From a virus, in the IMG/VR virus record IMGVR_UViG_3300033233_000020, positions 1 through 64,000 of that record: DNA of 64,000 bases. One strand, given 5' to 3'. The translations under genes and the position numbers were made by a program. The notes below the pieces were generated by a model. The model saw nothing but the letters and a program-made list of their open reading frames with translations, searched no databases and was not told the DNA's origin. Shown here piece after piece: positions 3,836 through 64,000 of this stretch. Position 1 is the stretch's first letter. Each line of letters begins with the position of its first letter.

Positions 3836-5200
3836 ATGACCTACAAAGACTTCCTAGACCAAAAGACACACGAGGGCGCAACGCACGGGTTTGAACCTGT
3901 GTTCATGCCCAACCAACTGTTTGATTTCCAGCAATCGCTGGTGGATTGGGCTGTGCGCAAGGGTCGCGCTGCGATCTTTGCTGACTGCGGACTCGGCAAG
4001 ACCGCCATGCAGCTCACATGGGCTGAGAACGTGGCGCGCCACACTGGTAAGCCGGTGCTGATCTTGACGCCCTTGGCTGTTGCTGCGCAAACTATTCGCG
4101 AGGGTGAGAAGTTTGGCATTGAATGCGCCCGATCCTCCGATGGCGCTATCAACAGCCGCATCGTGATCACCAACTACGAGCGGCTTGAGCATTTCAAACC
4201 GGCTGGCTTTGCCGGCGTGGTCTGCGATGAGAGCAGCATCCTTAAGAGCTTCGACGGCGCCCGCCGCAATGAGATCACCGATTTCATGCGCAAGGTGCCC
4301 TACCGACTACTAGCCACCGCCACTGCTGCGCCTAACGACTTCATTGAACTAGGCACCAGCTCTGAAGCCCTTGGCTACATGGGCCACATGGACATGCTCG
4401 CCCGGTTCTTCAAGAACGATCAGAACAATTTGACTAGCCGCCGCATGTACGGCGAGGCGCCCAAATGGCGCTTCAAGGGTCACGCTGAGCAGCCGTTTTG
4501 GAGGTGGGTTACCAGCTGGGCTAGGGCGTGCCGCCAGCCATCAGACCTTGGCTTTGATGATGGCCGGTTTACTTTGCCGCCACTGAAGGAGATTGACCAC
4601 CTGATTGAGACCAGCACCATTCCCGAGGGGATGCTGTTTGCCATACCAGCAACAGACCTAAGGGAGCAACGCGCTGAAAAGAAACGCACGGTTGTGGAGC
4701 GATGCGAGCAAGTGGCCAGCATGGTTGCCGATACTGGCCAGCCGGCGCTGGTGTGGTGCCATTTGAACGAAGAGGGCGACCTGCTAGAGCGGCTGATACC
4801 AGGCGCGATACAGGTATCTGGCAAAGATAAAGATGAGGCCAAGGAGCGCCGGTTAATTGATTTTGCGGAAGGCAGATCGCGAGTATTGGTTACCAAGCCA
4901 AAGATCGGCGCATGGGGGTTAAATTTTCAAGTTTGCAGCCATGTGACTTATTTTCCGTCTCATAGCTTTGAGCAGTATTACCAATCCGTCAGGCGTTGTT
5001 GGCGGTTTGGGCAAAAAAACTCTGTGACTGTTGACATCATCCTCACAGAGGGAGAGCGGCGAATTATGCAAAATCTACACCGCAAGCGGCTGCAGGCTGA
5101 GCAAATGTTTGGCAACCTAGTTGCTGAAATGAATCACTCGCTGGACATCCAGCGCAAAGAATACAACACCACTCCTATTGAGGTTCCATCATGGCTATGA
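3836..5200 (+). CDS. SNF2-family helicase
   Basis: ADCGLGKT, VCDESS, ATATAAPND, GLNFQ, YYQSVRRCWRFGQ motifs. Confidence 0.9.
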   Translation: MTYKDFLDQKTHEGATHGFEPVFMPNQLFDFQQSLVDWAVRKGRAAIFADCGLGKTAMQLTWAENVARHTGKPVLILTPLAVAAQTIREGEKFGIECARSSDGAINSRIVITNYERLEHFKPAGFAGVVCDESSILKSFDGARRNEITDFMRKVPYRLLATATAAPNDFIELGTSSEALGYMGHMDMLARFFKNDQNNLTSRRMYGEAPKWRFKGHAEQPFWRWVTSWARACRQPSDLGFDDGRFTLPPLKEIDHLIETSTIPEGMLFAIPATDLREQRAEKKRTVVERCEQVASMVADTGQPALVWCHLNEEGDLLERLIPGAIQVSGKDKDEAKERRLIDFAEGRSRVLVTKPKIGAWGLNFQVCSHVTYFPSHSFEQYYQSVRRCWRFGQKNSVTVDIILTEGERRIMQNLHRKRLQAEQMFGNLVAEMNHSLDIQRKEYNTTPIEVPSWL

Positions 5201-55684: not shown

Positions 55685-55940
55685 ATAAAATAAACGCAAA
55701 TTTGGGGTAAAAATTAGGGCTAAGGCCCTTTTTTACTGACATTTTTTAATGTAAATAATTTTTTATAGTTTTTATTCAACATGTAATCTGTATTTGTACT
55801 AGGACGTTTTTGTACATACAAAAAGCCTCACTTTTTTACCTATTAGGGGTAAGATTTACTCAACCCTTCTCACATACCCTACCCGAATATAAGTACGTAG
55901 AGAAAAAAAGAAAGGCGGGATGGGTTGAATAAGAGTAACG

Positions 55941-55980
55941 GGGGCTGCGCATCCGAGCAACGCAGAAAACCAACGCACTT
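55941..55980 (+). repeat. Leader repeat family IV, copy 1 (GGGGCTGCGCATC..CGCAGA..CAAC.CACTT)
   Basis: Second copy at 56405-56440; CTGCG/CGCAG stem in both. Confidence 0.7.
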
Positions 55981-56373: not shown

Positions 56374-56402
56374 TTGTCGTAGCAATTAGGGCTATGTATA
56401 AA
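56374..56402 (+). promoter_or_regulatory. Putative early promoter TTGTCG-17-TATAAA
   Basis: Directly precedes leader repeat IV copy 2. Confidence 0.5.
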
Positions 56403-56404
56403 CA

Positions 56405-56440
56405 GGGGCTGCGCATCTGTAACACGCAGACAACTCACTT
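56405..56440 (+). repeat. Leader repeat family IV, copy 2
   Basis: GGGGCTGCGCATCTGTAACACGCAGACAACTCACTT. Confidence 0.7.
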
Positions 56441-57736: not shown

Positions 57737-57763
57737 TGTCCTAAGCATGACATTAAACTGCTA
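57737..57763 (+). ncRNA. Pseudoknot repeat family II, copy 1
   Basis: TGTC-CTAAGCAT-GACA-TTAAAC-TGCT. Confidence 0.65.
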
Positions 57764-57791
57764 CCAACTCAACCTAACCCAACTAAAGACC

Positions 57792-58004
57792 ATGTCTCAA
57801 TCTATTTTCGAAATTGAAAACGCATACGTATGCGTCGTGAATGGTGAACCAGAACTATTTGAGACACAACAACAAGCAGAAGATCATGCCATGGAACTTA
57901 GCTTTGCATGGTATGACGCACAGCTTGATGTCCCTGCTCCGCGATTAGCAGTTATGTCAGTCACCAACTGGCTAAACCTGCAATCACGATTAGCACTCGT
58001 CTGA
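57792..58004 (+). CDS. Early hypothetical protein
   Basis: ATG downstream of the pseudoknot. Confidence 0.55.
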   Translation: MSQSIFEIENAYVCVVNGEPELFETQQQAEDHAMELSFAWYDAQLDVPAPRLAVMSVTNWLNLQSRLALV

Positions 58005-58058
58005 TGTTTGCCCAGAGGGCTTCGGCCCTCTCTGCAGATTTCATATCTGCTACTCAAC
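58001..58058 (+). ncRNA. Twin-hairpin repeat family III, copy 1
   Basis: AGAGGGC-TTCG-GCCCTCT; GCAGAT-TTCAT-ATCTGC. Confidence 0.55.
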
Positions 58059-58077
58059 TACAACCCAACTAGGAACT

Positions 58078-58320
58078 ATGTCTCCTTCAAGCGTTGAACA
58101 TCTACTCACCCAGCAAGCTCGCCTTCTGGCACGTAGAGAAACACCAGTCATCGACCAAGAGCTTGAGAACTTACGCCAATCGGCATTGGAAGTATTCTTC
58201 CAGTGGCAAGATGGCTTATGTGAGTTCCAAGATCTAACACCTTTCGTTGCCATCCTTGAGAAGAAGGTTGATCTCAACCAGTCACTACTCAAGTGGGAAC
58301 AAGAACACATCACTGACTGA
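58078..58320 (+). CDS. Early hypothetical protein
   Basis: ORF with AGGA upstream. Confidence 0.6.
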   Translation: MSPSSVEHLLTQQARLLARRETPVIDQELENLRQSALEVFFQWQDGLCEFQDLTPFVAILEKKVDLNQSLLKWEQEHITD

Positions 58321-58322
58321 TC

Positions 58323-58496
58323 ATGGAACAGTTAACTCTTCAACAAACGGCATTACTCAACCGTTACCACCGTATTTATGCGGCATGGTTAAAGGTTGAG
58401 ACTTATGAAATGGATGTCATGCTCTGCGCAGCTTACGCTTCCGCACTTGACACCTGCCTTGCTGCTGACTTTAATCCTTTTGATTACCCTGAATAG
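58323..58496 (+). CDS. Small early protein
   Basis: 57-aa ORF filling the gap. Confidence 0.5.
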   Translation: MEQLTLQQTALLNRYHRIYAAWLKVETYEMDVMLCAAYASALDTCLAADFNPFDYPE

Positions 58497-58497
58497 A

Positions 58498-58560
58498 CTG
58501 ATCTCTGCACTTAACCCTGAGTAACACCAGGGCTTTCTGCAGGGTTCACCCCTGCTCAAC
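58498..58560 (+). ncRNA. Twin-hairpin repeat family III, copy 2
   Basis: CCCTG/CAGGG; GCAGGG-TTCAC-CCCTGC. Confidence 0.55.
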
Positions 58561-58581
58561 ACTCACATCATTCACAGCACC

Positions 58582-58815
58582 ATGAAAGCATTACTCCTTG
58601 CATTAGTTCTGACAACACCCGCCATTGCTCAATCTATTGATCCTATTGCATATGGCGAAAGGTATTGTCTATTACGTAAATTGAATATTGATTCTGCAAC
58701 GGCACGTAAAACTGCTGTTGAATACAGCTATGATACACACCGTAGCCTGGTAAATAGCAAAGAAGATATTTCTGCTGCTGCTAAATACACAGTTAAGAAC
58801 TGTCCTGACTTCTAA
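58582..58815 (+). CDS. Small secreted-type early protein
   Basis: Signal peptide MKALLLALVLTTPAIA. Confidence 0.65.
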   Translation: MKALLLALVLTTPAIAQSIDPIAYGERYCLLRKLNIDSATARKTAVEYSYDTHRSLVNSKEDISAAAKYTVKNCPDF

Positions 58816-58844
58816 CCTGAACTACTCACACCTTTGTTAACAGC

Positions 58845-59036
58845 ATGAAACAAATCATCTCACTTGGTAACAACCGCTACATTCACCTAGACACTTATGG
58901 TGGATACAGGGAATCCCCTCTGTCTAAACTCGTCATGACAACCCTTGTACTAGCTATTGCAGGAATTACTGCAGGAGCTATGGTTGGCATTGACAGCACC
59001 AAGATCAACCCACCTACTCAACACCAAACCAAATGA
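58845..59036 (+). CDS. Small membrane protein
   Basis: TM helix. Confidence 0.55.
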   Translation: MKQIISLGNNRYIHLDTYGGYRESPLSKLVMTTLVLAIAGITAGAMVGIDSTKINPPTQHQTK

Positions 59037-59266
59037 ACACCTATGTAGCACTCATTGCAGATGACAGTGGCAGATACTGTCACGTCTATGGCACTGCAAA
59101 CACATGGCATAATTACGTAGACCAACTCGAAGAGCTGGGCTGCGAAGTTGTCGAAAATCAAACCGACGACTATGACATACAAGACCTTGGTACCATCGAC
59201 GATGAAATAGGCGTGGTACCCATCACCAAGCTACTAACATCCACTGACTTTATCCCCTGCAGATAA
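59033..59266 (+). CDS. Early hypothetical protein
   Basis: Coupled ORF. Confidence 0.55.
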   Translation: MNTYVALIADDSGRYCHVYGTANTWHNYVDQLEELGCEVVENQTDDYDIQDLGTIDDEIGVVPITKLLTSTDFIPCR

Positions 59267-59640
59267 TGAATAACCCACAACATCCCATCACCCCACCGCC
59301 GGAGCTGGTGCAGCAGTGGTTGTGCTCAGACGACTACCTGTGGGGTCCGCTTGAGCAGACGTCCATCACCATCACGACCAACCGGCTCCAGAACGTCGCC
59401 GCCCAAGCCGCCCAATGGGGCGCCGACCAGGAGCTGGAGGGGTGTTGTAGGTGGTTGCCGAAGCTACCCCCGTGGAGCGCAAACGACCTGCGCAAGCATC
59501 GCCGCCCCAAGCCGCCGAGCTTGAAGGAGCAGGCGCTAACTGCGCTACACGCTGTTGCAACAGGATCTAATGACACCCGTGAGCAACACCAAGACCTTGA
59601 CACTATTCGCCAAGCATTAGAGGCATTACCTAATGACTGA
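59266..59640 (+). CDS. GC-rich mosaic cyanophage protein (ITPPPELVQQW...AAQWGADQELE...RPKPPSLKEQAL)
   Basis: Locally GC-rich; shares 22 bp with 11602-11623. Confidence 0.7.
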   Translation: MNNPQHPITPPPELVQQWLCSDDYLWGPLEQTSITITTNRLQNVAAQAAQWGADQELEGCCRWLPKLPPWSANDLRKHRRPKPPSLKEQALTALHAVATGSNDTREQHQDLDTIRQALEALPND

Positions 59641-59842
59641 ACGTGAAAACTTCTACAAGTGGATAAAAACCTGTCCACTTACTGACTACAAAATATGTGA
59701 GGCAACTCTAACTTCTGTGTCATATGAATTTAACTTCAACACTGTTGAACCAGACATTGATCAACTCATTGATGATGTATTGATTCATCTAGAGAAATAG
59801 CCAATACTACCCATGTATTGGCACATCTTCTAATACATAACC

Positions 59843-59869
59843 AGACCTGAGCATGTCTATAAACTGCTC
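59843..59869 (+). ncRNA. Pseudoknot repeat family II, copy 2
   Basis: AGAC-CTGAGCAT-GTCT-ATAAAC-TGCTC, with a compensatory stem change relative to other copies. Confidence 0.7.
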
Positions 59870-59900
59870 CGCAAAACCCACATTCAATCCCCTGCAAATC

Positions 59901-60101
59901 ATGCAATCAACCTCTGACTTCATTGATGAGCAACGCAATGCTGACATGCTTGATGCACTGGCAGACATTGCATACGAACAAGAACAAGCTATGCGTGAAT
60001 CCGAGCAAAGCGATTGGGATGGCATCGATGAAATATCTGATGCCGAACGCAATGCTTGTGATCACTACAACGAACGTTATGTAATCACTACCCATGACTA
60101 A
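59901..60101 (+). CDS. Acidic early protein
   Basis: ATG after the pseudoknot. Confidence 0.55.
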   Translation: MQSTSDFIDEQRNADMLDALADIAYEQEQAMRESEQSDWDGIDEISDAERNACDHYNERYVITTHD

Positions 60102-60191
60102 CAAAGCACCACAAGATGAGGATCTAATACTCATCGCTGTAGCAATCTGCTACACACTATTCACTTTACTATTCCAACTCATTTCAGAACT

Positions 60192-60551
60192 ATGGCACTC
60201 CTACCTGAACAACTACTCATTGCCGAAGTCGTTGGCTACGAACCCGTCACCAATGACGAAGGCATGCAACAATACCCAGCCGACGTTGACTTTCAAGATG
60301 CACCCAAAGGTGCCATCCCCTGTACAGGAAACGTCTACAAGAACAAGAAGGGCGTCCTCCGTTGCTACTGGATTCCAGCCGGTGGCAACTACTCGTCAGA
60401 GGAAGGGGACGAACTCACAGGTTGGTACGACGTACCTGACCTCGAAGACATCGAAGAATGGACTTTCGACTCAGTCTGCTTCACACCCTGTGACGACGAA
60501 GTCGAACCTGACCACCCCGATAGCTGGCTAAGTATCCTTGGCCTTATCTAA
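60192..60551 (+). CDS. Acidic hypothetical protein
   Basis: EEWTFDSVCFTP.D.VEPDHPDSWLSILGLI C-terminus. Confidence 0.65.
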   Translation: MALLPEQLLIAEVVGYEPVTNDEGMQQYPADVDFQDAPKGAIPCTGNVYKNKKGVLRCYWIPAGGNYSSEEGDELTGWYDVPDLEDIEEWTFDSVCFTPCDDEVEPDHPDSWLSILGLI

Positions 60552-60568
60552 TTAATTAGATTACGCAT

Positions 60569-60775
60569 TTAAGGAGCAAACTTCTGCATTTGATTTAATA
60601 ATCTAATATCTGCTTGTTTTTTTATTACAGGAATGCTTTCATTATTTACAATAGACTCTAAAAAGCTTATCACTTTATCTTGCGATGGCATAGAACCATG
60701 AGCTTTCATGTATTCTTGTTGCCATCCTTGCAGAAAAGGACTATTACTTATTGAATATCGACCAGCAATTAACAT
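60569..60775 (-). CDS. AT-rich hypothetical protein, inverted in the early block
   Basis: The only plausible ORF in this gap. Confidence 0.4.
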   Translation of the reverse strand: MLIAGRYSISNSPFLQGWQQEYMKAHGSMPSQDKVISFLESIVNNESIPVIKKQADIRLLNQMQKFAP

Positions 60776-60881
60776 CTTATTTACACTATAGATGTTAATA
60801 TTTTAACCCTGGGCAACCACAATCGCTAAGCACATAGCTTAGAAAGATATGGTGTAAGTCCCAGGATCAACCCTCAATTCA

Positions 60882-61166
60882 ATGCAAACCTACCCCGAGT
60901 ATCCAGTGTCTGACCACGCAAACATCCTACGCATCATCAAGGAACTCAACGAGATCCTTACACGTGAATCCAAGCGTTACGAAATGGATGAGCACCTGAC
61001 TCCATCTATGCGCAGCTTATTGGAGGAGGAGATCATTCCTGCACTAGAGAATGAAATCAATTGGGAACCAAGTGATGCAGACCTTGGCTATGGTGGTGAA
61101 CCACCTATGACTGCTGATGAAATGCACACTGCTGCATGGCAACAGCACCAAGAACTACATAGGTGA
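60882..61166 (+). CDS. Early hypothetical protein
   Basis: ORF after a structured leader. Confidence 0.6.
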   Translation: MQTYPEYPVSDHANILRIIKELNEILTRESKRYEMDEHLTPSMRSLLEEEIIPALENEINWEPSDADLGYGGEPPMTADEMHTAAWQQHQELHR

Positions 61167-61209
61167 GATACTTGTAATCCGAGTAACTACCATCTATTCA
61201 TAATCCGAA

Positions 61210-61268
61210 TAACAAAGGGCTGGTACGCATTAGTACCTAAGCCTGGTGCGGCCAGGCACCCTTTGTTA
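61210..61268 (+). ncRNA. Candidate three-way-junction RNA in a non-coding gap
   Basis: TAACAAAGGG/CCCTTTGTTA closes GGTAC/GTACC and GCCTGG/CCAGGC hairpins. Confidence 0.5.
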
Positions 61269-61525
61269 AACGACGGAATCCCAACGGGAAGAATAGATCA
61301 CTGGCCAGTGAGGTCTCGAGAACCACACAAAGTCTAACTTTTAATCAAACTTAACTAACTCAGTACAAATACCCAATGAGACTAAGAGATCCCCCCTGCA
61401 CCCCCCTGGCAACCCACCACCAGCACTATTAGATTTAGAAGTAAGTCCCATGTAATACACATAAGACTTACTTGCTCTTCCTTGACATCCCTGATAGACT
61501 ACCAACTCATTCACCCACTCATCTC

Positions 61526-61753
61526 ATGCCACTCATGTCACCACTCAACGACGCACCTAAGCCACGCATTCCAGATGCCATCGACAAGCAACGGCTGCAA
61601 GCAATGCAGCTCGTAGCAAAGATGAAAGAATCTGCGGATAAGTACGGCGTTGGTTTCGTCGGCGGCTTCATCAGCCCCAACGGACAAAAGTTCATGATGA
61701 CAAACATGAACGAAGATGACACCAACGCACTCTTGCCGGATGACCTTAAGTGA
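61526..61753 (+). CDS. Early hypothetical protein
   Basis: Follows a TTGCTC-17-TAGACT promoter-like sequence at 61472-61500. Confidence 0.6.
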   Translation: MPLMSPLNDAPKPRIPDAIDKQRLQAMQLVAKMKESADKYGVGFVGGFISPNGQKFMMTNMNEDDTNALLPDDLK

Positions 61754-61989
61754 TTTACAAATCAATCACTGATCGTTACGAAAAGATATGGCAGATTACT
61801 GCAGAGGTAATTGCCCATCCTCACCGTACGATTACACCTCATGACAAACATCGTGCAACCGTTCTCATCAGCTTCTTATCCGGAGATGATGAGATGGTTG
61901 AATACATTCATTCTCAAATGAATGAAGATGATTTCAAACAGACCAAACAAATCCGCACCTTTGTACATGACAAAAAAATCACCCATTAA
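61750..61989 (+). CDS. Early hypothetical protein
   Basis: Coupled ORF. Confidence 0.5.
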   Translation: MIYKSITDRYEKIWQITAEVIAHPHRTITPHDKHRATVLISFLSGDDEMVEYIHSQMNEDDFKQTKQIRTFVHDKKITH

Positions 61990-62164
61990 CTTTGACAGAA
62001 CCATCGCAGGTGTCAACATCACCGAGAATGGTATCAAGTCGTACACTAAATCGTTTCAGCTTGGTCCCTTCCAGCTGACACTTAATGCTCGTGACTCTGG
62101 CGTACATGGATCTATATCCTTGCCAGGCACAGGCTTGAGTAAGAGAAACATTAAGATAATCTAA
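61967..62164 (+). CDS. DUF4236-like protein
   Basis: KSFQLGPFQLTLN...SISLPGTGLS. Confidence 0.6.
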   Translation: MTKKSPINFDRTIAGVNITENGIKSYTKSFQLGPFQLTLNARDSGVHGSISLPGTGLSKRNIKII

Positions 62165-62168
62165 AGAT

Positions 62169-62197
62169 ACGTCCTGAGTATGACGTTAAACTGCTCA
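62169..62197 (+). ncRNA. Pseudoknot repeat family II, copy 3
   Basis: ACGTC-CTGAGTAT-GACGT-TAAAC-TGCTCA. Confidence 0.75.
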
Positions 62198-62222
62198 TCA
62201 CTCACCTTCAACTACCACTGCA

Positions 62223-62417
62223 ATGACTACAGCAAAACCATTTGAATCTAATCTCAACATACTTGACCGCGTTCATGTTGCAAATTGTGCAGCAGAACGT
62301 GCACGTATGTACTGCACCGATACCGAAAGGTTCAACGGTGAGTTTGCTACAGTACGCATGTGGACAAACTACAAGTGTTTCATCTCGAACTACGGTAGCT
62401 ACGTAGAAACTTACTAA
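62223..62417 (+). CDS. Early hypothetical protein
   Basis: ORF after the pseudoknot. Confidence 0.55.
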   Translation: MTTAKPFESNLNILDRVHVANCAAERARMYCTDTERFNGEFATVRMWTNYKCFISNYGSYVETY

Positions 62418-62674
62418 TGTCTGTCTTATCTATTCACGACACATCAATTGATAACAACCATGTCACAGTTACAGCAGTTGTGGAAGACATGCATCTCCTA
62501 CGCAGAGCAACTCGCGATGACCCTGATCAATGGGGTCCAGGCCTTTGTTCAACATCTTTTGAACTGGCTGACGACCAATCAATCCCTACTGATGAAGATG
62601 GCTTCTGCAGCTATCTTGATCAGCTTGACCCCCAATGGCAACTCGTTGACCTCTCTGATCGCTACCTAACATGA
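62417..62674 (+). CDS. Early hypothetical protein
   Basis: Coupled ORF. Confidence 0.6.
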   Translation: MSVLSIHDTSIDNNHVTVTAVVEDMHLLRRATRDDPDQWGPGLCSTSFELADDQSIPTDEDGFCSYLDQLDPQWQLVDLSDRYLT

Positions 62675-62874
62675 TTGGCTTCTCCTTTGAATTCAAACGA
62701 TGGTATGTAGTAGTACGTGGCCCCAAGGGTACCGTCTACTTAGCCTTTGGCTTTGCTAAGCAAATGCCTGTGTTCACACCAGCTAAAACTATGACTCTCC
62801 AAGAGTACATAGATGATTACAATGATGCCATCGTATTCACTAACGAAAGTGGTGAAGAGTTAATGCGCATCTAA
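62671..62874 (+). CDS. Early hypothetical protein
   Basis: Coupled ORF. Confidence 0.55.
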   Translation: MIGFSFEFKRWYVVVRGPKGTVYLAFGFAKQMPVFTPAKTMTLQEYIDDYNDAIVFTNESGEELMRI

Positions 62875-62878
62875 TCTA

Positions 62879-62907
62879 ACGTCCTGAGTATGACGTTAAA
62901 CTGCTCA
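62879..62907 (+). ncRNA. Pseudoknot repeat family II, copy 4 (identical to copy 3)
   Basis: Exact 29-bp repeat of 62169-62197. Confidence 0.75.
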
Positions 62908-62933: not shown

Positions 62934-64000
62934 ATGCAGTTCCAACTACCCACAAATTTACAAACTGAGTTGATTGCGTATGATCCACAGCTCAAGGCTT
63001 TGGCTCGTACTCAAAAGCAATCAACAACCAAGAAATCTAAATACCCACTGGGTAATCCTATTGATCTTATCCCTAATGAAATCATTACAGCAGAGAGAGT
63101 ACAAGATGCCATTGATGCAATCAACAAGGCACCAGCCCCTGGTCGTTACCGCGAGTTCACCAAAGTAACGTCGACAGGTACAATAACCCACGCAGTCCTT
63201 TACCACTACGAACAAGTATGGTACGCAGCCTGGCTGCCACCTAAGGGCAAGGAAGCTGACTATATCTATGGCTATACCTATGCATACAAAGATACAGCTA
63301 CTGTACGCAAGTTATTGCCACGTGCTTTAAACATGGCAAAAGATGATTGTGTAAACAAACCATCTGGTAGATGTACGTTTGTTACTTATACACAACAAGT
63401 AACCAAACAAGATGTCATCAATGGAAGAGATACATATAATTGGAACATACCAAACATGCAACGATACGCGCAAAAATCACAAAATATGCGCGAACCTATT
63501 GATCGTTTTGAAAACCAAATTGAAATGTCTATACCTCAATGGAAAGACTCTAGAAATATATTCGAACGTATCAAAACCACATGTATTGCAGAGTTATTTA
63601 CACGTGATTTCCATACTGAATACTGGAAAGACATAAACAAATCCAAGTGGTTACCTTCTGTTGATATTATCTTTAGCTTTATTAACAACCAAGATGTACA
63701 CAGCTCATACAACTTATTCGCTGAAGATCTTTATGGTTATAAAAGTATCTTGCACATATTAGATACACCATACTTTCGTAAGTGGATCCAAAACAAATGC
63801 AATGAATCTATAGAATCATTTAACAATCCAGATACTGATACAAAGATATCAATTACACAACCATGGCTTATGATCTTTCATCTGTGTAAACAGATCAAAA
63901 CCGTACACAATATCTGGGGAAATGCATGTCCTCTTGATTACTATCAAACAAACCTCAATGCTTTACTCAGTGTTAGTTATAACTCTGGTTACAGTAAAGA
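62934..64000 (+). CDS. Large hypothetical protein (truncated by window edge)
   Basis: Not in the ORF track; frame is open from ATG 62934 (MQFQLPTNLQTELIAYDP...) to the window end by hand translation. Confidence 0.75.
   Translation, partial: MQFQLPTNLQTELIAYDPQLKALARTQKQSTTKKSKYPLGNPIDLIPNEIITAERVQDAIDAINKAPAPGRYREFTKVTSTGTITHAVLYHYEQVWYAAWLPPKGKEADYIYGYTYAYKDTATVRKLLPRALNMAKDDCVNKPSGRCTFVTYTQQVTKQDVINGRDTYNWNIPNMQRYAQKSQNMREPIDRFENQIEMSIPQWKDSRNIFERIKTTCIAELFTRDFHTEYWKDINKSKWLPSVDIIFSFINNQDVHSSYNLFAEDLYGYKSILHILDTPYFRKWIQNKCNESIESFNNPDTDTKISITQPWLMIFHLCKQIKTVHNIWGNACPLDYYQTNLNALLSVSYNSGYSK

Follow-up and report, generated by a model that had tools for sequence, protein, structure and literature searches.

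A short repeat that recurs between small genes of a viral genome, IMG/VR virus record IMGVR_UViG_3300033233_000020, encodes a compact H-type RNA pseudoknot of about 28 nt on the sense strand, and this pseudoknot is under strong purifying selection. The record is 95,070 bp long, and the window that we analyzed is its first part (64 kb, positions 1 to 64,000). The consensus of the motif is P1(4-6 bp)-CYRAGYAU-P1'-N-UAAAC-UGCUY, where P1 is the first helix and the loop that it closes pairs with the downstream UGCUY to form the second helix, P2. The motif sits at gene boundaries in operons and is indifferent to the type of gene that follows and to the phylum of the host. As to its role, we tentatively favor the possibility that it is a self-contained module between cistrons, serving as an RNA boundary or in RNA processing or stability.

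Four copies lie in the window, all on the + strand, at the positions and with the stems that a first-pass annotation had read from this DNA. Copy 1 (57737-57764; 40.7 bits, E = 3e-10) has a P1 of TGTC/GACA (57737-57740 with 57749-57752), the loop CTAAGCAT (57741-57748), the linker TTAAAC (57753-57758) and a P2 3' strand, TGCT(A), that begins at 57759; its P2 comprises only 4 bp (AGCA/UGCU). Copy 2 (59843-59870; 43.5 bits) is built from AGAC/GTCT (59843-59846 with 59855-59858), the loop CTGAGCAT (59847-59854) and the linker ATAAAC (59859-59864), with GAGCA pairing to TGCTC (59865-59869) in P2. In copy 3 (62169-62197; 47.7 bits), P1 is ACGTC/GACGT, the loop CTGAGTAT occupies 62174-62181 and the linker TAAAC 62187-62191, and P2 joins (U)GAGUA to UGCUC(A) with one U.G pair. 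Copy 4 (62878-62907; 50.7 bits) has AACGTC/GACGTT as P1 and the same loop, CTGAGTAT, at 62884-62891. Two further copies lie beyond the window, at genome positions 68294-68333 and 71425-71464, where they precede the GP88-like gene and the SSB gene. All six copies of this genome are on the sense strand, and each was retrieved by a covariance model at E ≤ 3e-10, the next match being at 0.57. The exact 9-mer TAAACTGCT occurs in the window at only the four sites, all on the + strand, against a chance expectation of about 0.5 (128 kb with both strands, by our own arithmetic), while its one-mismatch matches are at chance level (20 vs 20.2 expected). The motif family is also the top direct-repeat family of the interval 55.3-64 kb. 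When the + strand of the 95-kb genome was searched blind to sequence, using only the geometry (4-bp stem, 8-nt loop, AAA linker and 5-bp second helix), 7 sites were returned, 5 of which were real copies.

The main evidence for the fold comes from covariation. P1 consists of 4-6 bp; it is closed by C-G, which is followed by an A-U or U-A pair and then by a G-C or C-G pair. The first loop (L1) is C(U), P2 joins (U)GAGYA to UGCUY(A) over 5-6 bp, the junction is a single U, and the third loop (L3) is N-UAAAC, placed such that it could occupy the minor groove of P1. The pairs of P1 are thus fixed in type and free in orientation, as minor-groove contacts by the adenines of L3 would impose. To collect copies from IMG/VR we used the pattern CYRAGYAT-N5-TAAACTGCT, which leaves both stem arms unconstrained; the free 5' arm was complementary over at least 3 bp in 125 of the 131 pattern matches listed, with many different stem sequences. 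In an alignment of 134 sequences (A1; shuffle test with n = 500), P1 was 95% paired and double changes were found in all four of its pairs, one of them being GC in 64, CG in 56, AU in 6 and UA in 5. The search pattern left only two P2 pairs free to vary on this alignment: R13-Y33, which was GC in 85, AU in 26, GU in 9 and something else in 14, and U12-A34, which was paired in two thirds of the copies. The observed pairing values were reached by 0 of 500 shuffles.

P2 was freed by running a P1-only model on the fetched loci, which gave a 93-sequence alignment. Here 94.8% of cells were paired vs 77.1% in shuffles, two-sided changes were present in 9 of 10 pairs (0/500 shuffles), and slid partners reached 18-38%. 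Among the divergent copies obtained with the P1-only model, A14-U32 had become G-C twice, G15-C31 A-U, Y16-G30 U-A and R13-Y33 U-A, and a paired C/G insertion made P2 six pairs long; one copy contained three G.U pairs, and just two or three changes were uncompensated. Compensation was also seen when orthologous sites of Synechococcus phage S-EIVl were compared with this phage: CGTC/GACG changed to TGTC/GACA at two sites and to GGTC/GACC at one, and at one site G.U was replaced by A-U and U.G by C-G. The pairings that had been proposed from the four copies, namely P1, the loop-tail helix P2 (GAGYA with UGCUY) and its alternation between C-G and U-G, therefore hold, with compensatory changes, in more than 130 independent copies. 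The AAAC linker, which had been called invariant, held up across the same copies as near-invariant, not as absolute.

G.U pairs are common (36 U.G at pair 16-30 of the 134-sequence alignment) and, together with the fixed orientation of the motif relative to genes, they indicate that the fold forms on the sense strand, which is almost certainly the RNA. The 28 nt to which information content is confined begin at the fourth P1 pair and end one base past UGCU; the flanks on either side are G-depleted. The conserved unpaired nucleotides are concentrated at the helix junction, with the linker UAAAC near-invariant. Taken singly, the helices are weak (-2.3 to -5.6 kcal/mol for P1 and -0.3 to -4.5 kcal/mol for P2). 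Of note, in one variant (L132:335-389) a further hairpin, some 15 nt long, separates the junction U from the 3' arm of P1; otherwise the motif is intact.

No Rfam 15 family matched the window at the gathering score, and at E ≤ 10 the segment 57650-63000 gave 5 weak matches, none overlapping a copy. The covariance search that the first-pass annotation had suggested thus assigns the copies to no catalogued family at either setting. No description of the motif was found in the literature by sequence or keyword, though it may be among the roughly 10,000 unnamed phage RNA candidates catalogued in 2023 (PMC10690425), which could not be checked. We rate the motif as a new RNA family with a known fold type.

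The family is widespread. The pattern was present in at least 120 IMG/VR contigs, and among 48 IMG/VR records searched whole, 29 had one copy and 19 had two to six; for records at least 90% complete, 11 of 18 had a single copy. The S-EIVl lineage stands at the upper end of copy number, with six copies here and five or six in S-EIVl. Using one common variant as BLAST query, we found that cultured phages of unrelated families carry the motif: Roseobacter phage SIO1, Lentibacter phages ICBM1-3, Celeribacter phage P12053L, the crAss-like phages cr7_1 and cr124_1, Clostridium phage phiCT19406B (C. tetani), and Lactobacillus phages phig1e and phiEF-1.1. The phiEcoM-GJ1 group of E. coli and Yersinia phages has a weaker version, with a weak P1. 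The covariance model found one copy each in SIO1, phig1e, phiCT19406B and phiEcoM-GJ1, two in tandem in cr7_1, and none in the T4 genome. As for bacterial genome assemblies, about three quarters of the pattern matches had no P1 and correspond to chance (some were inside metH genes). About 30 did have the stem; these were in Enterococcus, Weissella, Lentilactobacillus and Clostridium isolates, where they probably belong to prophages, and in contigs of metagenome-assembled genomes (MAGs) from Saccharibacteria and others. The hosts therefore comprise cyanobacteria, Alpha- and Gammaproteobacteria and Bacillota, and probably also Bacteroidota (from the crAss-like phages and a Saprospirales spacer) and Saccharibacteria (from MAG contigs). 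Since the family is widespread and mostly single-copy, a lineage-specific punctuation code is excluded as its general explanation.

Some occurrences have unusual arrangements. Two tandem copies separated by 2 nt were found in cr7_1 (L257:1455-1536) and also in L019 and L094; the first of those in cr7_1 is built on a GAG/CUC stem, and its outer P2 pair is a compensated U-A, while the tandem pair in L094 is followed 5 nt on by tRNA-Val. A Selenomonadaceae MAG contig (L240:246-4001) contains six copies in 4 kb that is mostly non-coding, with strong intrinsic terminators within about 10 nt after at least two of them (one terminator is at 4000-4031; another such copy is at 254). These copies could be small RNA genes or attenuators. 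In two bacterial contigs, from a Bradymonadales MAG (L161, about 1700-1900) and a Saprospirales MAG (L191), the whole motif plus flank is a spacer of a clustered regularly interspaced short palindromic repeats (CRISPR) array, with direct repeats of 37 nt and 30 nt. Hosts have thus taken up spacers against this conserved phage element, which makes the motif a target already exploited by CRISPR arrays.

The position of the motif relative to genes follows certain rules on its upstream side. The upstream gene was co-directional in 123 of 132 cases. Counted from the loop start, upstream stop codons were at -12 in 27 copies, at -13 in 9 and at -14 in 8 (44 of 127 copies), with none closer than -11, so that the gap between the stop codon and the 4-bp P1 core is 4-5 nt at its closest. 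Copies 3 and 4 of the window illustrate this arrangement: a TAA at 62162-62164 lies 4 nt ahead of the 5-bp stem of copy 3 and 5 nt ahead of its 4-bp core, and a TAA at 62872-62874 lies 5 nt ahead of the P1 core of copy 4. According to textbook ribosome geometry, such a spacing is about the closest at which a structure escapes unwinding by a terminating ribosome, which suggests that a ribosome terminating there would leave the fold intact.

On the downstream side, the next start codon is mostly 10-30 nt after the motif, at a distance that is not fixed. In this phage, TGCT is followed by a start codon after 27-29 nt for copies 1, 3 and 4 and, provided that its gene starts at ATG 59913, after about 44 nt for copy 2; the earlier statement that each copy precedes a start codon by about 25-30 nt was therefore roughly right, copy 2 being the exception. 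Nine copies are followed after 4-11 nt by a tRNA gene on the same strand, vs about 0.05 expected. The downstream open reading frames (ORFs; n = 155) form many small clusters and are very diverse, their products including PhoH, scaffold protein, primase, SSB, thioredoxin, kinases and FmdB-type Zn-ribbon proteins; in this phage they are PcfJ-like and GP88-like proteins, SSB and small ORFs. All-against-all clustering of 1,798 ORFs from 120 loci disclosed no universal neighbor protein, the most frequent one being Hsp20 (21 loci, immediately upstream in 20).

A recurrent module, found in L022, L027, L055, L075 and their relatives, consists of an Hsp20 gene, the pseudoknot and a gene for an FmdB-type Zn-ribbon protein of 58-62 amino acids. 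In this group the P2 3' strand (CUCC...) can alternatively pair with the Shine-Dalgarno sequence (SD; ..GGAG) of the Zn-ribbon gene: a CUCCUUAA/UUAAGGAG helix, which overlaps the P2 3' strand, sequesters the SD. We considered the Zn-ribbon protein as the partner of the motif, which it follows in 11 contigs, and rejected it, since this genome, S-EIVl, phiEcoM-GJ1, cr7_1 and phig1e lack it; a search of SIO1 for it gave two sub-threshold matches only. The motif itself contains a near-invariant AUG (A17 U18 G19) at the P2/P1 junction, for instance at 62180-62182. It is in frame with the downstream ORF for copies 1 and 2, and the frame varies among copies. We rejected a peptide encoded from this AUG because its frame relative to the next gene is not constant.

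We tentatively propose that the pseudoknot folds on the polycistronic transcript just beyond the upstream stop codon and that, once folded, it would be an autonomous boundary module for its own transcript. As such it would set or protect an end of the RNA, or shield the following unit, be it an mRNA cistron or a tRNA precursor, from upstream events, without acting on the ribosome or serving as a promoter. Within this phage it would belong to a set of several structured elements between the small early/middle genes and the replication genes, a role that fits the locus because other repeated structured elements occupy neighboring junctions. The indifference of the motif to gene type and host phylum implies that its partner is universal, or that it has none.

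Several points weigh against a boundary module. The mechanism is one that we infer, and the weak single helices are unlike what a brute-force block to a nuclease would need. The 5' exonuclease roadblock and the protein-binding site that the first-pass annotation had suggested are possible roles that none of our analyses favored. Stabilizers are usually simple hairpins, while the near-invariant loop, junction and P2 across phyla look more like the mark of a specific partner or ligand, or of a catalytic core. The predominance of single copies (29/48 genomes; 11/18 near-complete ones) means that 'punctuation' cannot be the general role, and an element in a tRNA leader would be removed by RNase P anyway. 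A wider proposal, which we regard as possible and put forward with reserve, is that the motif represents a new class of portable phage RNA module whose near-invariant junction recognizes something universal or is catalytic. If this were true, the universal target would be a metabolite, an ion, RNA polymerase or an RNA-processing enzyme, and unrelated phages of hosts from at least five phyla would control or process transcripts with the same element, one of the smallest natural functional RNA folds.

Other functions would account for part of these observations. A universal ligand or a conserved host protein might stabilize the fold and thereby tune the downstream unit, as in a riboswitch or another aptamer-type element. 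We consider this rather unlikely, even though the stems covary around near-invariant unpaired and junction nucleotides, each helix is only marginally stable alone, most genomes have a single copy, and the architecture (H-type with an A-rich third loop) is that of the smallest known aptamers, such as preQ1-I. Many downstream genes also belong to DNA and nucleotide metabolism, and subsets of copies have platform-like neighbors (the SD-sequestering helix of the Hsp20/Zn-ribbon group and the terminators of the Selenomonadaceae contig). Yet no general expression platform was seen, as the P2 3' strand paired with the next 50 nt over 2.67 nt vs 2.56 nt in shuffles and P2 does not overlap the SD; the downstream genes, which include tRNAs and scaffold proteins, are functionally incoherent; and the clustering of the 120 loci yielded no shared partner encoded by the phages. 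A terminator or attenuator is rejected as the general function: terminator-like sites were present in 0 of 137 cases upstream and, among viral copies, after only 1 of 137, vs 1.7% and 2.5% at ordinary gene starts. The scarcity of terminators close by also counts against a cis-acting RNA that, by analogy with HK022 put, would act on the transcribing RNA polymerase, the nascent pseudoknot altering pausing or termination downstream. Such an element would serve ORFs and tRNA genes equally, would need only a universal host machine, in keeping with the phylum-wide spread, and would have to stay clear of the trailing ribosome, which agrees with the stop-codon spacing; the copies do lie within co-directional operons, some of them directly upstream of terminators. 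We nevertheless find it doubtful, since put has two stem-loops where the motif is one pseudoknot, and since polymerases and their signals differ between cyanobacteria (the hosts of S-EIVl-type phages) and the presumed Bacteroidota hosts of crAss-like phages.

A standby or docking site for ribosomes, or an enhancer of translation of the downstream cistron, could be suspected from the fact that the motif ends 10-30 nt ahead of most start codons, abutting the ribosome-binding region, and that the leaders following it in this phage are G-poor and have no SD. An enhancer for SD-less genes was among the roles that the first-pass annotation had suggested. A translation element is improbable, because nine copies stand directly ahead of tRNA genes, because the same motif precedes strong-SD genes in prophages of Bacillota (Firmicutes), SD-less genes in this cyanophage and genes of crAss-like phages, and because its distance to the start codon is not fixed. 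It appears very improbable that the motif is a tiny ribozyme, self-cleaving or with some other catalytic activity, by which the transcript is processed at gene boundaries. Its genomic ecology does resemble that of twister, pistol, hatchet and hepatitis delta virus-like ribozymes in phages, with one to few intergenic and tRNA-adjacent copies in many unrelated phages and with conserved unpaired nucleotides gathered at the helix junction; but 28 nt and two short helices are far below the known natural self-cleavers, no conserved nucleotide beyond the pseudoknot marks a cleavage site, and no ribozyme model of Rfam matched even at E ≤ 10. Least credible of all is a signal at the DNA level, whether a promoter (for a host sigma factor, a phage RNA polymerase or of the N4 hairpin type) or a recombinase or dimer site. 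An oriented, repeated 28-bp element ahead of genes and tRNAs is what phage promoters look like, TAAACT resembles a -10 box, and the element coincides with the boundaries of gene cassettes. A double-stranded site would, however, impose neither the maintenance of pairing in stems of free sequence nor the loop-tail covariation, and on the opposite strand the G.U pairs would turn into A.C mismatches; together with the strand specificity, this disfavors the double-stranded DNA site that had been considered before. No -35 or extended -10 box is conserved, no promoter-like site was found at the copies, and the region as a whole had fewer such sites than shuffled sequences (12 vs 16.4). The predominance of single-copy genomes and the identity of the motif in phages whose hosts use different promoter types lead us to reject the promoter reading; besides, the motif of phiEcoM-GJ1 lies away from the annotated phage promoters, and transposases or integrases are not consistently nearby.

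The region of the window that contains the copies matches S-EIVl (KJ410740) in patches of about 80% identity, and all six pseudoknots fall in the S-EIVl-like part of the genome. The locus is a series of short co-directional ORFs, followed by replication genes for a PcfJ-like protein of 569 amino acids, a GP88-family protein, DNA polymerase A and SSB. Behind copy 1 comes an ORF of 70 amino acids without a family match (57792-58004, + strand), then ORF 58078-58320 (+ strand). Copy 2 is probably followed by an ORF of 62 amino acids that starts at ATG 59913 (59913-60101, + strand); an alternative, longer frame would start at ATG 59853, inside the motif. Three small ORFs (62223-62417, 62417-62674 and 62671-62874, + strand) separate copies 3 and 4. 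The 569-amino-acid ORF behind copy 4 (+ strand, a weak PcfJ-like match) occupies 62934-64000 of the window and ends at genome position 64643; its S-EIVl orthologue (AHV82189) also has a pseudoknot in front. Other repeated structured elements are present at neighboring junctions of the same early region. These include a 34-nt repeat (55937-55970 and 56401-56434) with an internal GCTGCGCA..CGCAG hairpin, and the word CCCTGCTC(A), which occurs three times (57017, 57932 and 58550) and at 58550 forms the 3' foot of a GC-rich hairpin preceding a leader. The hairpin repeat and the word may each represent another family of junction structures.

Over a run of 29 nt, copies 3 and 4 are identical (62169-62197 = 62879-62907), and both this direct repeat and the three ORFs that it encloses agree with the earlier description. 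The suggestion made at the time, that the copies drive deletion or duplication of the genes between them, receives some support from this identity and from one genome pair. In S-EIVl, the orthologue of copy 1 is directly ahead of the homologue of ORF 58078, whereas here the 70-amino-acid gene is interposed. The difference is an indel spanning 57759-58053 of the window, which contains that gene (57792-58004) and two hairpins. At its far edge a solitary TGCTAC (58048-58053, + strand) is followed by the conserved leader CTCAACTACAACCCAA of ORF 58078; in the S-EIVl copy, the P2 3' strand and the leader behind it match this TGCTAC with its leader. ORFs 57792 and 58078 have duplicate leaders and first codons (AACCCAACTA..ATGTCTC). 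Identical copies may thus serve as sites of homologous recombination at which intervening genes are added or removed, presumably as a side effect.

The near-unchanged loop and junction across cyanophages, roseophages, crAss-like phages and temperate Lactobacillus, Clostridium and Enterococcus phages imply a strong general function. The size of 28 nt permits a complete mutational and structural analysis, and culturable carriers are available in SIO1, phig1e, S-EIVl and relatives of phiEcoM-GJ1 (phage flopper on E. coli K-12). Be it the definition of RNA ends, the sensing of a ligand, an action on polymerase or catalysis, any of these functions would add to the short list of minimal functional RNA folds. 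Potential uses are as a compact, host-independent part for operon engineering and as a conserved marker of operon boundaries in phages.

We compared the motif with known elements of similar shape or location. It shares with the promoter-early stem-loop (PeSL) cassettes of T4-type phages, reportedly described by Arbiol et al. 2010, that short repeated cassettes stand between small genes of a plastic region and that identical copies flank sets of genes. Differences between close relatives may also map to the cassettes, as the single indel in one pair of genomes suggests. In contrast with PeSLs, it lacks both a sigma-70-type promoter and a T-run terminator hairpin, its conserved feature being an RNA pseudoknot; its family extends to unrelated phages, mostly in single copy, and T4 has none. 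The RNase III sites of T7 and tRNA-like punctuation are likewise structured elements in short co-directional gaps, independent of the flanking genes, but the motif is far too short for RNase III and lacks the T-loop and RCCA tail of tRNA-like RNase P substrates. Promoters of the N4 type or of single-subunit polymerases differ in that the motif is mostly present once, that its loop-tail covariation and G.U pairs point to RNA, and that it is found in temperate Lactobacillus and Clostridium phages; phiEcoM-GJ1 does have a T7-like polymerase. A short P1 hairpin, a pseudoknotted loop and an A-rich linker after P1 are features in common with the pistol ribozyme (RF02679), as is the association with phages (PMC4604425). 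This ribozyme was rejected because its P2, P3 and cleavage junction are missing, information ends at the P2 3' strand of the motif, and no match to RF02679 was found; moreover, tRNA genes that begin only 4-11 nt after the motif argue against a pistol P2/P3 and a cleavage dinucleotide 3' of the pseudoknot.

In architecture and size, the motif resembles preQ1-I riboswitches (RF00522) and frameshift pseudoknots of the luteovirus type, exemplified by beet western yellows virus, which have a P1 of 4-6 bp, an L1 of 1-2 nt, a short P2, one nucleotide at the junction and an L3 rich in adenines that can occupy the minor groove of P1. Also reminiscent of a frameshift pseudoknot is the distance of about 5 nt from the codon at which the upstream ribosome halts. 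Unlike elements that cause frameshifting or readthrough, however, the nearest stop codon can be as far as 150 nt from other copies, the next gene has its own start in any frame, there is no overlapping frame, no slippery site was seen (without a systematic search), and the motif also precedes tRNA genes. It differs from preQ1-I in its loop and tail sequences, and it has neither a match to RF00522 nor a link to queuosine or preQ1 genes. What it has in common with preQ1-I is the H-type scheme of P1 and P2, which is supported here by covariation, and a near-invariant UAAAC, which would dock on P1.

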